Source: Octopus vulgaris
Lineage: Eukaryota
Assembly: GCA_951406725.2 (NCBI GenBank)
Contig: OX597842.1
Coordinates: 29,016,001 to 29,080,000 of the forward strand
DNA length: 64,000 nt
Direction of reading: 5' to 3'
The position numbers were made by a program, and so were the translations under genes. Each line of letters begins with the position of its first letter. Within the stretch, counting starts at the first letter, position 1. Below the pieces are notes generated by a model, which made no database searches, had not been told where the DNA came from, and saw only the letters and a program-made list of their open reading frames with translations. This document shows positions 13,922 to 63,381 of the stretch, one piece after another.

Positions 13922-14418
13922 ATACCGGAGTAAACACATAAATGTGAAACAAGGTGGAAAAAAGAGTACTCAAATACCAGTGGTAGAGTAATATGCTTTA
14001 TTTAAAGCAGCAGAAAATTCCACAAAACCTGTTACTCTGAGTTTCTCGTTGCCGTTCATCAGACAGTTTTTGTTAGAATGGAACCGATATATCAATTCAA
14101 TCCAGACTCTTGCAAACGCTACACCTTTACAAAATGGACTTGTTTGATTGGCCCTTTAGAAATAACGGTCAATCTTCGAGCGTTAAACAAAAATGAGCTC
14201 AAAAATATATATGTATATATACATAAAAATTATAAATATAAGATTGACCATTATTTCTAAAGGGCCAATCAAACAAGTCCATTTTTTAAAGGTGTAGCGT
14301 TTGCAAGAGTCTGGATTGAATTGATATATCGGTTCCATTCTAACAAAAACTGTCTGATGAACGGCAACGAGAAACCCAGAGTAACAGATTTTGTTGAATT
14401 TTCTGCTGCTTTTAAAGT
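13922..14418 (-). mobile_element. Short palindromic copy of the same PLE family, with two hammerhead motifs (14024-14071 minus, 14345-14392 plus)
   Basis: 13922-14180 matches the reverse complement of about 63220-63481; inverted arm about 14240-14418; bounded by (TA)n. Confidence 0.8.
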
Positions 14419-14482
14419 ATATATATAATATAATATATATATATATATATATATATATATATATATACATTCATACATATAT

Positions 14483-15230
14483 ACAGGGTGTTCCAGAAGT
14501 CTTGGGCACATTTTGACTTTGAATATCTCGCAAACTATTAAGGACATAAAAACGCATCTGATATATTCTGAAAGTTTGCAATTTCAAGTTTTTTAAGGAA
14601 TGTTCAAAGAAGTTCAATGTGAGCCCCGTTGGGGACACGGCACACATCAAGTCCAATGCATTCCAGCATTGCATTGTCGATAGTTGCAATTGGGACCTTC
14701 AGTTCATCCACGTCTTTTGAAAGAGGAGACACATAGACCAATCCTTTCACAAAACGAAATCGCAAGGTGTGAGATCTGGAGACCTGGGAGGCCAGGGCAT
14801 AAGAATGCAATCATCTCGCCCAGACCATCCATCTGTCTGGAAGTGTTGTGTTCAGAGACTGTCTAACCCTGAGTCTCCAGTGTGGAGACGCCCCGTCCTG
14901 TTGGAAAATGAAGTCCCTACTGGCTCTTCTGATCGATTTACGGGGTCTTTGCTTGAAGGCAGTTCGAACTCGCTCAACCGTATCATCTGAAGTTGAGGGG
15001 CACCCTGTTCCCTTAGCTGGGTACAAATAGCCATCCTTCATGAATTTACCATCTCAATATGGACTTCCTTTCTGGTGCCTCTTTTCGGAATTTTGTGTGA
15101 AATGCATGTTGAACAAGTGTCCATGATTCAGTTTTTGCAAATTCAAGGATGCAAAACGCCTTTTCTGGTTGAGTGAACACCATTACTGGATCTGAAAAAT
15201 ATTAAAAAATCATTAGCATTGCAAAACTAT
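14483..15230 (-). mobile_element. Tc1/mariner (rosa/DD41D-like) internally deleted transposon
   Basis: EKAFCILEFAKTES; TVERVRTAF..PRKSIRRASR; FQQDGASPHW..VRQSLN..WPPRSPDLTPCDF; end TA-CAGGGTG. Confidence 0.85.
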
Positions 15231-15237
15231 ACTATAT

Positions 15238-15403
15238 ATATATATAATTAAATATAATTAAGGGTTAAGCAACAAGTTGCTTCACCGTGGAGTCATATTT
15301 GTAGTAAAAAGGAAATGAGCTGTCTTTTGGCTGCTATTTCTAAATTTTCGGTATGTGGTGAAGCAACTTGTTGCTAAACCCTTAATTATATTTAATTATA
15401 TAT
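15238..15403. repeat. Inverted repeat (about 48-bp arms)
   Basis: taattaagggttaagcaacaagttgcttcacc / ggtgaagcaacttgttgctaaacccttaatta. Confidence 0.8.
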
Positions 15404-16839
15404 AAAAAAACTTTTTTATAAAAGTTTCTACCGATGATGGTTTTCTTTCTATACCGAAATTACTTGGTAAAATTTATTAATTATTAAATTAATAATTCTT
15501 TACCCTGTATCTGTGTGTGTGTGTTTATATATATATATATATATATATATATATATATATATATATATATATATATATGAATAGAAAATGGGACATGAAT
15601 GCAAAACATCCGGACACCTAGGTGGTACAAAAAGGGACAACAAAACATCCAGACAGACGATACAAAGAAAACAAGGATGGGTCATACGAAGTTCTCTTTC
15701 CTCAGTCAAGTACCAGATTATCCTTGCAATTTCGACCGATTATTCTTGAGGGTGCTCCAATCTGGCCAGCCCCAAGGAAAAACTAAGCTAAGAGCTTTAG
15801 ATTCCTTGGAAGAAAGCAGCAAATGTATACAAAAGCAAGGACGGAAAAAATGGACAAAAATGTGGTAATTGTTCAGTTTAATGACATAAAAAAGTAAATA
15901 AAAATTAAGGGGGAGATAAGTAGTAAAAGCAGTTTACTTTTTACACAGCATAAGACTAGGGATCACCACCAGAAAGTGAACAAAGGTCTTATTTTTCTCA
16001 ATGGAATTACACCTGAGAATCTCATGGAGATATGAAACAATTCGTCTGATGTCCCAAATTATCGTCTCAACTTCCATTTCACTCACATCCACATATTTTC
16101 TTCATTTTCTGTTCGTTCTGATCATAAACAATTGATTGTAAAGTAAAGAATGTCCAAACATCTTTAAGTTGACTTGTTTATGTTCCTTTGCTTCTTTTAC
16201 TACTTACCCCCCCAATTTTTATTTACTCTTTTTACACTAATAAAATGAACAATTACTATATATATATATATATATATATATATATATATATATAATATAA
16301 ATACACACACACAGACATATATACTCTTTTACTTGTTTCAGTCATTTAACTGCGGCCATGCTGGAGCACCACCTTTAATCGAGCAACTCGACCCTGGGAC
16401 TTATTCTTTGTAAGCCCAGTCTCTATCAGTCTCTTTTATTGAACCGCTAAGTGACGGGGACATAGACACACCAGCATCGGTTGACAAGCAATGCTAGGGG
16501 GACAAACACAAATACACACACGCACATATATATATATATATACATATATACGACGGGCTTCTTTCAGTTTCCGTCCACCAAATACACTCACAAAGCTTTG
16601 GTCGGCCCGAGGCTATAGTAGAAGACACTAGCCCAAAGTGCCACGCAGTGGGATGGAACCCGGAACCATATATATATGAGCAAAATGCTCCCCATCCAAT
16701 GGACGGTGCTGAGTTGTCAAACATTTAAACCAAATTTTCTCAAAACAACTTGTTCGACCATCCCATAGGCCTCCCCCCTTTGAGAAATACTGATTTAACC
16801 TAAATTTGAGACACCAGCAAAAGAAGAAATAAAGAGGCT

Positions 16840-61086: not shown

Positions 61087-61133
61087 AAAACTGTCTGACA
61101 AACGGGAACGTGAAACTCTGAGTAACAGCTTTT
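61087..61133 (+). ncRNA. Variant hammerhead motif of a sister subfamily (core G8 to A)
   Basis: ctgt-CTGACAA-ACG(GGAA)CGT-GAAA-CTC(T)GAG-TA-acag; changes fall in loops or restore stem II. Confidence 0.6.
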
Positions 61134-61221
61134 GTTATATTTCTTCTGCTTTTAAATAAAGTATATATATATATATATATATATATATATATACTTTATG
61201 TTAAGCAGCAGAAAATTCAAC

Positions 61222-61269
61222 AAAATCTGTTACTCTGAGTTTCTCGTTGCCGTTCATCAGACAGTTTTT
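61222..61269 (-). ncRNA. Minimal type I hammerhead ribozyme motif (inverted-arm copy)
   Basis: Reverse complement of 63334-63381. Confidence 0.72.
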
Positions 61270-63333
61270 GCTAGAATGGAGCTGATATATCAATTCAATC
61301 TAGACTCTTACAAACGCTACACCTTTAAAAAGAAATGGACTTGTTTGATTGGCCCTTTAGAAAAAAACGGTCAATCTTCGAGCGATAAACAAAAAGGTCA
61401 AAAATATATGTATATATATAAAAAAGCTTATAAAAAATTATAAAATCCGAGGAAAAAACCTTACATTGAATAAAATACATATTGACATTAATGAAGAAAG
61501 TATAAATTAATTCATAGGAATTAAACCTGTTATAAATATTACACTGCAATACATATTTTTATTAAAATGTGCATATATATATCAACATACACAAAAAGGA
61601 TGCGCGCCAACGCCATACATATACAGACGTATGAATATAAATCTAAATATACACATAAATGCATGTGTACATATATTCACGCAAAACCATCTCGCACGCA
61701 AGTTAAAAATCATGTATGTAGCGATTCTCATATACTGAGTAAGGGGGGAACGAAAGAAAAGAAGAGAGAGAAAAAGGAACGAAGGAGGGGTGGGGAAAAA
61801 AACGAAATAAGAAAAAATTATGTATACAATCTGTGTAACGGCGTTATTGGCATATATGGAGACAAGTATACAAACAAGTTCGTATGGATACATATATACA
61901 GTCGTGTATATGTGTGCTTAAGCACAAACATACTCTCACTTACACATACACAGATACGCATGCTTACAAATACATATCCTCGGCTATACACATACTTATA
62001 TCAACATTTTAATTTTGACAACATTGCTTTTTTTGAAAATAACATTGCTTTTTTTAAAAGAATGGGTGCATTAATAAAAATATATACGAAAGACATATAA
62101 AATAAAATATAACACCCTATTTTGGATCATTTATAAATAATCAAGGTAATATAAATAATCAAGGTAATCCTATACAAGAAGTGAGCTAATGAACTTATGT
62201 AGGCACGCGGCTAAATTTAAAATGTCGAATATAAATATACCATATGGATAGAGTATATATTTTGTATTTTTGATCTTTGAAATTTTGATTTTGACTCTTG
62301 AACGATGAGCGCTACAATGGATTTTGTTTTCCAAGCTATGCGGATCTTAATCCGTATAGCAAAGTCTTGTGTTTCTACATATACATCAGGAAAAAACCTT
62401 CGACCCTGTTTTCAGGTTACTGTATTGTATAGGATTACCTTGATTATTTATATTACCTTGATTATTTATAAATGATCCAAAATAGGGTGTTATATTTTAT
62501 TTTATATGTCTTTCGTATATATTTTTATTAATGCACCCATTCTTTTAAAAAAAGCAATGTTTTTTTCAAAAAAAGCAATGTTGTCAAAATTAAAATGTTG
62601 ATATAAGTATGTGTATAGCCGAGGATATGTATTTGTAAGCATGCGTATCTGTGTATGTGTAAGTGAGAGTATGTTTGTGCTTAAGCACACATATACACGA
62701 CTGTATATATGTATCCATACGAACTTGTTTGTATACTTGTCTCCATATATGCCAATAACGCCGTTACACAGATTGTATACATAATTTTTTCTTATTTCGT
62801 TTTTTTCCCCACCCCTCCTTCGTTCCTTTTTCTCTCTCTTCTTTTCTTTCGTTCCCCCCCTTACTCAGTATATGAGAATCGCTACATACATGATTTTTAA
62901 CTTGCGTGCGAGATGGTTTTGCGTGAATATATGTACACATGCATTTATGTGTATATTTAGATTTATATTCATACGTCTGTATATGTATGGCGTTGGCGCG
63001 CATCCTTTTTGTGTATGTTGATATATATATGCACATTTTAATAAAAATATGTATTGCAGTGTAATATTTATAACAGGTTTAATTCCTATGAATTAATTTA
63101 TACTTTCTTCATTAATGTCAATATGTATTTTATTCAATGTAAGGTTTTTTCCTCGGATTTTATAATTTTTTATAAGCTTTTTTATATATATACATATATT
63201 TTTGACCTTTTTGTTTATCGCTCGAAGATTGACCGTTTTTTTCTAAAGGGCCAATCAAACAAGTCCATTTCTTTTTAAAGGTGTAGCGTTTGTAAGAGTC
63301 TAGATTGAATTGATATATCAGTTCCATTCTAGC

Positions 63334-63381
63334 AAAAACTGTCTGATGAACGGCAACGAGAAACTCAGAGTAACAGATTTT
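63334..63381 (+). ncRNA. Minimal type I hammerhead ribozyme motif
   Basis: ctgt-CTGATGA-aCG(GCAA)CGa-GAAA-CTC(A)GAG-TA-acag: stem I CTGT/ACAG, GNRA-capped short stem II, stem III ACTC/GAGT, GUA site. Confidence 0.72.

Follow-up and report, generated by a model that had tools for sequence, protein, structure and literature searches.

Hammerhead motifs in a genomic window of Octopus vulgaris as probable 3' ends of a Hydra-clade Penelope-like retrotransposon family

The hammerhead-like motifs in the 64,000-nucleotide stretch of Octopus vulgaris DNA analysed here (hereafter, the window) are, judging from their sequence context, very probably the 3'-terminal hammerheads of a Hydra-clade Penelope-like element (PLE) family of retrotransposons. 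The six motifs belong to four insertions and are not six free-standing ribozymes. The motifs are real, but they are the ends of broken copies of a known type of jumping gene, and the finding is therefore mostly ordinary; neither a new class of ribozyme nor a function for the host comes to light.

An earlier note on the window had located six motifs, and a hammerhead-like motif was present at every one of them on the strand claimed, with coordinates that take in 5 flanking bases on each side. The motif sequence quoted there is exact at 14024-14071(-), 61222-61269(-) and 63334-63381(+) but not at 14345-14392(+), where C replaces U in stem III and one pair is thereby broken. With respect to the core (CUGANGA, GAAA, UH) and stems I to III, three of the six copies are full, one has this stem III mismatch and two have broken cores. 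The copy at 4315-4361(+), which had been called decayed, indeed has a broken core; that at 61087-61133 had been listed as a sister variant, but its core reads CUGACAA with G8 lost, a change that had gone unmentioned, and it is among the three damaged hammerheads. In place of the purine-pyrimidine pair (usually G-C) at 10.1-11.1, A.A was found in five of the six copies and A-U in the sister. The motifs exceed chance: a type I descriptor with exact core gave three sites in the window, whereas none of 20 block-wise dinucleotide shuffles contained a site; when one mismatch was allowed, the counts were four in the window and 13 over the 20 shuffles. The hammerhead at 63334-63381(+) is an intact minimal type I motif with a stem I extendable to 63326-63388, and by consensus numbering its predicted cut would lie between 63372 and 63373, after GUA. 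Minimal type I hammerheads of metazoan PLEs are reportedly treated also by Lunse et al. 2017. A scan with Hammerhead_1-type models had been suggested as a check; the Rfam hammerhead models gave no match at E<=10 on 63300-63420, and for the whole window no hammerhead family was among the 150 of 178 matches listed, which were only microsatellite-driven miRNA and snoRNA matches below the gathering score. A degenerate hammerhead pattern gave 0 matches in metagenome contigs and viral contigs.

The motifs had been counted as separate repeated copies; however, those at 61222 and 63334 belong to opposite arms of a single inverted insertion, and so do those at 14024 and 14345 in another. Insertion A consists of a 5'-truncated main copy (62178-63480(+); ORF end, 3' UTR of about 1.08 kb, hammerhead, short end and tail) and an inverted arm (61189-62177(-), 990 bp) that carries the intact hammerhead at 61222-61269(-), stops tailless at the short end and is followed by (TA)n. 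The 66-nt tail (63415-63480(+)) occurs in the main copy only, and (TA)n follows at 63481-63528. Aligned with 62425-63414, the arm differs at 5 columns over 990 bp (99.5% identity). Insertion B has its main copy at 13925-14239(-), with the tail at 13925-13990, the hammerhead at 14024-14071 and (TA)n past the tail, and its inverted arm at 14240-14417(+), with the hammerhead at 14345-14392 and an end at the short end; the arms form an inverted repeat of about 175 bp (97%; 5 substitutions over 171 columns). Insertion C (4194-4389(+)) is a solo truncated copy that lies between TA runs, reaches as far as the short end and carries the hammerhead with the broken core at 4315-4361. Insertion D (61072-61161(+)), of a sister family, is made up of a 15-nt inverted stub (61072-61086, 13/15 identical to the tail end) and an arm whose start coincides with the 5' edge of stem I and which carries the hammerhead without G8 and reaches the short end in (TA)n. 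Insertion E (44107-44139(-)), absent from the earlier list, is a 33-nt micro-copy identical to 63382-63414, without hammerhead, between TA runs.

TA runs adjoin all five insertions, and in the hammerhead-bearing ones the motifs are placed 3'-terminally in 5'-truncated copies within (TA)n. The 5' truncation points differ between copies; two fixed 3' ends, 66-71 nt apart, recur across them, and the hammerhead is placed 33-38 nt upstream of the short end on the strand of the ORF end. Insertions A and B are head-to-head inverted pairs with the 66-nt tail on one arm only, and the combination of 5' truncation, adjacent inverted copy and one-sided tail is seen in A, B and D. Self-comparison of the window, in which the copies are short, gave no direct partial tandem forming a pLTR before a full ORF. 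All six motifs lie outside the mapped coding span (22277-46592) of an ankyrin-repeat gene, and a role in that gene was rejected on this ground. An exon near the insertions matches an Octopus vulgaris protein at 100% identity.

In public sequencing data, contigs from all four runs compared extended over 62178-63480 with all 30 of its 30 bins represented; as contigs, these data show neither RNA ends nor expression. Loose (AT)n ends behind 63414 were seen in at least 30, at least 40 and at least 3 contigs in three of the four runs, and opposite-strand joints in at least four different places. Among the rows listed none falls on the predicted cut site, which carries no weight given that 865 loose-end rows and 86 variant rows lay beyond the listing. 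Summed contig depth, which is not copy number, rose several-fold over the hammerhead and tail. The two arms of insertion A agree at 18 of 18 tested bases where this insertion differs from most compared contigs.

The longest copy enters the putative end of an element ORF. The last 24 codons and the stop (62177-62251(+)) contain E-L-x3-C-R-H-x2-K-F, the C-terminal motif of the Hydra-clade GIY-YIG endonuclease. In this clade a C-x-H motif follows the conserved N of the endonuclease at the ORF end. Fig. S7 of PMC8557442 shows E-x4-C-x-H in 9/9 Hydra rows and H-x2-K-F in 7/9; nine rows of other clades are without this C-terminal tail. The strict motif, which was composed after viewing the sequence and includes a one-residue widening (M), has a single match among the six frames of the window. 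This match lies at 62183, on the hammerhead strand and at the 5' truncation point, and 200 simulated windows gave 0 matches. For a loose form, 0.43 occurrences per window are expected and two were observed. Other features of Hydra-clade PLEs are an RT with RWK and DKT, a CxCX5C linker, CxxC before the catalytic E, and no CCHH (PMC8557442). The insertion A copy is truncated downstream of the RT and of the CxxC and linker features; no reverse transcriptase sequence was found in the window, and among its 37 long stop-free frames the 15 that were searched with Pfam gave neither RT nor GIY-YIG. A protein database search with the ORF end, a query too short to inform, returned nothing at E<=10. The assignment to the Hydra clade is based on the 24 codons, the hammerhead and the target preference, and stays putative to that extent. 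The Naiad clade was rejected, as its members have an N-terminal endonuclease and no canonical hammerhead.

As for function, the motif had been read as a minimal type I hammerhead whose stem III is near-palindromic and whose cleavage would proceed through dimers, and the predictions agree that the active fold should form only in a dimer. For the 63334 copy, the lowest-energy homodimer predicted is the double hammerhead, at -29.2 kcal/mol versus -27.0 for two misfolded monomers, and in the monomer the predicted hammerhead fold lies 4.7 kcal/mol above the minimum. Dimer cleavage of PLE hammerheads has already been described (PMC4209133, PMC8557442), and on these models it is a plausible idea for the octopus hammerhead as well. 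Since the paired copies in the window lie on opposite strands, a read-through RNA would contain both sense and antisense and would fold back rather than dimerise in cis (for 13991-14422, predicted at -302 kcal/mol). Measurable dimer cleavage in vitro has, in our estimate, a slightly better than even chance, and cleavage of any kind from the copies in the window is unlikely.

The hammerhead may instead be vestigial or structural and not cleave at a meaningful rate; this reading concerns function only, is compatible with the PLE identity, and is a serious possibility to which we give somewhat less than even weight. Stem II has 2 bp closed by A.A in place of G10.1-C11.1, shorter than in 26 published rows, and activity is therefore doubtful; the monomer misfolds, and PLE minimal hammerheads cleave weakly even when dimerised (PMC4209133). 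Hammerhead mutants left insertion in vitro unaffected, and for an anole PLE, RNA-seq ends at the cut site were not found (PMC11167929). In the window, no copy starts at the predicted cut site (the first base of insertion D's arm is at the 5' edge of stem I, and insertion E starts 9 nt downstream of the cut). Structure-preserving variation, which had been claimed for the family, is not borne out, as no compensatory change lies inside the motif and half of the copies are damaged. In the alignment of the six window copies (5 distinct rows, 22 pairs), to which the covariation check was confined, just one pair is altered at both of its positions. It sits in the outer flank of the sister copy, in non-homologous sequence, and 168 of 500 shuffles reached this value, which leaves no excess covariation. 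Against the vestigial reading, the core is intact in four of the six copies, the predicted homodimer minimum is exactly the double hammerhead, and stems I and III are retained between octopus and coral whereas stem II is divergent. The A.A at the base of stem II had been regarded as non-canonical, marking either an unusual variant or a weakly active one; A.A is indeed unseen in the published Hydra rows, but a mismatch at 10.1-11.1 is common (15 of 26) and therefore seems tolerated.

The term hammerhead family in the earlier note implied a non-coding ribozyme repeat that stands alone (retrozyme or SINE-like). Such a repeat would suit the short, non-coding nature of most copies, and animal retrozymes have type I hammerheads and may descend from PLE ends (bioRxiv 10.64898/2026.07.22.740005). 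However, no head-to-tail array was seen among 35 tandem-repeat rows or in the window self-comparison, the 5' ends vary by copy and the longest copy enters the ORF end; the tandem retrozyme was rejected on these grounds, and we consider the stand-alone repeat very improbable. A fold-back or MITE-type DNA transposon, with the motif in its terminal inverted repeats by chance, is hardly credible and was rejected: it would account for the long inverted repeats and the TA-rich targets, but the arms are asymmetrical, with a one-sided tail, and range from 990 bp to none, the inversion points vary, insertions C and E are solo one-ended copies, and one copy starts within the ORF end.

For the preferred reading, a Hydra-clade PLE, the following mechanism may be proposed. 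The GIY-YIG endonuclease of the element would nick (TA)n, and reverse transcription would begin at either of two sites near the RNA 3' end, of which the outer would yield the tail and the inner would yield the short end; cDNAs from both DNA strands would halt early and then join head to head. The hammerhead would be passive cargo in the dead copies of the window, and in tandem source elements it would most likely form a double hammerhead through the palindromic stem III, with slow cleavage after GUA. A quite improbable further idea is that the hammerhead mainly pairs two element RNAs (palindromic stem III and swapped stem I), one template per nicked DNA strand, giving head-to-head insertions with one-sided tails. 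The arm of insertion D at the stem I 5' edge fits this idea; it did not arise by fold-back on the first cDNA, because the 15-nt tailed stub and the arm do not overlap. Two of the four opposite-strand joints listed from public contigs also lie at this edge (63336, 63337), although such supporting numbers are tiny. The near-lost stem II would then reflect a relaxed catalytic need with dimerisation retained. Naiad elements, which have the same inverted structures without canonical hammerheads, count against the pairing of RNAs.

The present data add one octopus family to the Hydra clade, as well as a hammerhead variant (2-bp stem II, A.A-closed) missed by Rfam models, and offer possible test material for the question of what a PLE hammerhead does. 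The family is abundant, both of its 3' ends are fixed and its inversion junctions are many, so that mapping 5' ends across the genome relative to the stem I edge and the cut site is feasible.

The octopus family shares with the Hydra clade (Craig et al. 2021, PMC8557442) the 4-bp palindromic stem III, the 1-nt loop (17 of 26 Hydra rows in File S2, hand count), the sense-strand hammerhead near the 3' end and the (TA)n targets (preferred by 26 of 27 Hydra families). The octopus hammerhead agrees with that of Hydra-2_Amil in stems I and III, in the core and in the cleavage base, and differs in the loop III base; Penelope-3_HM has an identical stem III and loop. Short strings from the octopus hammerhead were not found in the PMC8557442 supplement, in which line breaks could mask a match. 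The clade is already present in Octopus as the published Hydra-1_Obim, whose stems I, II and III are other than ours, so that the window family is a different one. None of the 26 published Hydra rows has a stem II as short as the 2-bp, A.A-closed one in octopus; at its base they have U.U (14), U.C (1), G.U (3), G-C (7) or an extra G with A-U (1). The 3' UTR (about 1.08 kb) far exceeds the roughly 150-190 nt in two coral Hydra consensus ends. The minimal type I hammerheads of metazoan PLEs (Cervera and de la Pena 2014, PMC4209133) have in common with ours the conserved core, the short or palindromic helix III and the predicted dimer-only activity; they lie mostly in dispersed truncated copies, and opposite-strand pairs 100-700 bp apart were noted. 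Helix II is long in their consensus, with a base bulged after A9 and with G10.1-C11.1 conserved, whereas helix II is very short in octopus and this pair is absent. The inverted pLTR with an optional one-sided tail is a described PLE insertion layout (Arkhipova et al. 2013, PMC3846280; Frangieh et al. 2024, PMC11167929), and the head-to-head arm, the tail at one end and the two fixed 3' ends are shared with it; unlike in that layout, the tail measures 66-71 nt instead of 30-40 bp and a target duplication is unreadable inside (TA)n. The tail seen in vitro for a PLE was explained by two reverse-transcription start sites (PMC11167929), and the inverted 5'-truncated copy is shared with the Hydra clade, in which Penelope-13_HM has a 966-nt inverted copy (PMC8557442).

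A hammerhead-like motif was found at all six places listed in the earlier note, on the strand given there, and the motif quoted in it was matched exactly at three of them, 14024(-), 61222(-) and 63334(+). At 14345(+) one stem III pair is lost through a U-to-C substitution, and the core of the copy at 4315(+) is broken; the 'sister' at 61087 has a core that reads CUGACAA, a loss of G8 that had gone unreported. In hammerhead numbering, G8 and the 10.1-11.1 pair are important positions. The importance of C3/G8 is supported by PMC11167929, and that of G10.1-C11.1 by PMC4209133. When an exact core was required, a type I descriptor matched three sites in the window versus none in each of 20 shuffles (relaxed descriptor: four sites versus 13 in the 20 shuffles), so the motif is real; an Rfam search of 63300-63420 (E<=10) gave no hammerhead match. 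The structure-preserving variation claimed for the family did not emerge from the six-row alignment: one of the 22 pairs was changed on both sides, a value reached by 168 of 500 shuffles, and this sole change lies in the sister copy, in a non-homologous flank. The earlier observation was partly confirmed, and its interpretation partly supported.

Self-comparison of the window placed the motifs in a longer repeat, and the six motifs, previously counted as separate copies, proved to belong to four insertions. Insertion A (61189-63480) consists of a main copy (62178-63480 (+)) and an inverted arm (61189-62177), which repeats 62425-63414 with five differing columns in 990. Insertion B (13925-14417) is built likewise in the opposite orientation; its arms, each about 175 bp long, are five substitutions apart in 171 columns. 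In both, the main copy extends 66 nt past the stop of the arm, and these tails differ at two of 71 positions. Insertion C (4194-4389) stops at the inner end common to the arms of A and B, as does insertion E (44107-44139), a 33-nt micro-copy absent from the earlier list. Insertion D (61072-61161), from a sister family, is an arm whose start coincides with the 5' boundary of stem I; ahead of it lies a 15-nt stub, an inverted piece of the tail end (13/15 identical). TA runs adjoin all five insertions. Small hairpins were predicted at 63396-63411 and 63415-63439 (+), one just before the inner 3' end and one opening the tail.

The motifs are very probably the ends of Penelope-like elements (PLEs). 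The main copy of insertion A opens within a reading frame of which 24 codons are left before the stop (62249-62251), and this end carries E-L-x3-C-R-H-x2-K-F. In Fig. S7 of PMC8557442, an E-x4-C-x-H end is present in 9/9 rows of the Hydra clade, a group of PLEs with a C-terminal endonuclease, and continues as x2-K-F in seven of the nine; all nine rows from other clades are without this tail, and C-x-H is called a possible Hydra-specific motif in the text of that paper. A strict pattern, built from the Hydra rows and widened by one residue after the window was seen, had one match in the six frames of the window (at 62183) and none in 200 simulated windows; a loose pattern had two matches, versus 0.43 expected per window. 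No reverse transcriptase was found in the window, Pfam gave none in 15 of the 37 long frames, and a protein database search with the ORF end, a short query of 24 codons, returned no match. The putative assignment to the Hydra clade rests on this short motif plus independent features (hammerhead, TA targets). The supplement of PMC8557442 gives (TA)n as the target of 26 of 27 Hydra families.

PLE insertions are truncated at the 5' end; in many cases they adjoin an inverted copy and bear a one-ended tail of 30-40 bp (PMC8557442, PMC3846280). With an anole PLE in vitro, both DNA strands were cleaved and extended, and reverse transcription began at two sites, the interval of which equals the tail (PMC11167929). 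The layout, two 3' ends, variable truncation and TA targets were seen in the window, and by analogy its insertions would have been made by this PLE process, with a longer tail. Splice-like signals were noted just 5' of stem I at 63281-63332 (+). They comprise GT at 63281 (alternatively GTAAGA at 63292), TTGAT resembling a branch point, a short stretch of pyrimidines and a TAG whose last base is 63332, a span of 41-52 nt. For the Penelope of D. virilis, an intron end has been mapped to the 5' end of helix I (PMC4209133). In both copies of insertion B, changes affect the second GT as well as the AG of the window's signals, and none of the contig joints listed spans these signals.

In public sequencing data, part of the element was present in 20 of the 24 runs listed (10 studies, 4 organisms), the best of which may be the window's own source, and contigs of four runs (3 organisms) covered 30/30 bins. 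In run X1, summed depth, which is not a copy number, was about 0.24 million immediately before the hammerhead and 2.25 million immediately after it, a rise compatible with 5' truncation or with sister families that have this end in common. Among the loose ends listed, (AT)n followed 63414 in at least 30, 40 and 3 contigs of runs X1, X3 and X8, respectively; the inner end is therefore constant. At least four opposite-strand joints were found at differing places, two of those listed having one side at 63336-63337, the edge of stem I. Another base made up >80% of X1 depth at 18 of the 35 variant positions listed within the arm of insertion A; since the window's base is common to both arms at 18/18 of these, the two arms have a single source, dating from insertion or from a later conversion, and do not count as independent evidence.

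In the predicted monomer (-13.5 kcal/mol, versus -8.8 for its hammerhead fold), the core pairs with the 3' strand of stem III, and the predicted homodimer minimum was a double hammerhead (-29.2 versus -27.0 for two monomers), a minimum predicted to be lost in the 14345 copy. PLE hammerheads are described as acting as dimers with low activity (PMC4209133; review PMC6765202). Because the paired copies lie on opposite strands, an RNA reading through both would form a fold-back; within a few kb of 63334, the G8-less sister is the sole neighbour on the same strand. Any cleavage would belong to tandem source elements elsewhere; insertion by the anole PLE was unaffected by hammerhead mutants (PMC11167929).

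All six motifs lie outside the coding span of an ankyrin-repeat gene (22277-46592 (-); six coding exons mapped, source label 'ankyrin-3-like'), and an intron of this gene contains micro-copy E. Identity is 100% between its exon at 41657-42118 and a protein that the source labels Octopus vulgaris. PF13920, presumably a RING-type zinc finger, is also on the record of the ankyrin-repeat protein. A second, older inverted element (52002-52801; arms about 255-286 bp, 25 substitutions, ends in TA runs, spacer possibly coding) is possibly another PLE family; it has a degenerate hammerhead-like stretch near 52070-52110 (-), and no Rfam match. A third repeat family (3737-4015 and 40485-40633) forms an inverted pair plus a solo copy with a common end beside TA runs, and no hammerhead core was seen in it. 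Further decayed inverted-repeat pairs (77-80% identity) lie at 43086-43545, 44863-45384 and 50782-51483. A SINE-like dispersed repeat of ~400 bp occurs at 3297-3738, 5644-6084, 16269-16669, 18006-18748 (169-nt tandem at 18236-18581), 19955-20269 and 21495-21866, all on (+) and 83-89% alike. A 1-kb repeat (1823-2930 and 57198-58162; 84% identity), with a PHD finger match (E 2e-5) in frame 2022-2930(-), is probably a LINE remnant.

The octopus Hydra-type PLE family joins a known clade. It was not found in the covered portions of the literature on octopus hammerheads or Penelope or of the PMC8557442 supplement, Repbase and Dfam being outside this search; the 31 recently active Penelope-like families of a 2026 O. 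vulgaris repeat annotation (PMC13282606) may include it. Hydra-1_Obim, a published octopus family, differs in its stems and is another family. Penelope-13_HM has a 966-nt inverted 5' copy, resembling insertion A. The stem II and loop at 63350-63359 (+) share 9/10 bases with the listed loop II of Penelope-2_NV (10/10 for the sister, its loop base ignored), a resemblance, possibly due to chance, that makes stem II look like the end part of a longer helix. The octopus hammerhead agrees with Hydra-2_aMil in inner stem I, core, stem III arms and cleavage base, and with Penelope-3_HM in stem III and loop. In the 26 Hydra rows of PMC8557442 File S2 (hand-counted, one family entered twice), loop III is 1 nt in 17; at the base of stem II, 14 rows have U.U, 1 has U.C, 3 have G.U, 7 have G-C and 1 has an extra G plus A-U. 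A.A occurs in none of these rows, and the octopus stem II, at 2 bp, is shorter than all; given the mismatches at this position, the octopus A.A is one variant of a tendency that runs through the clade.
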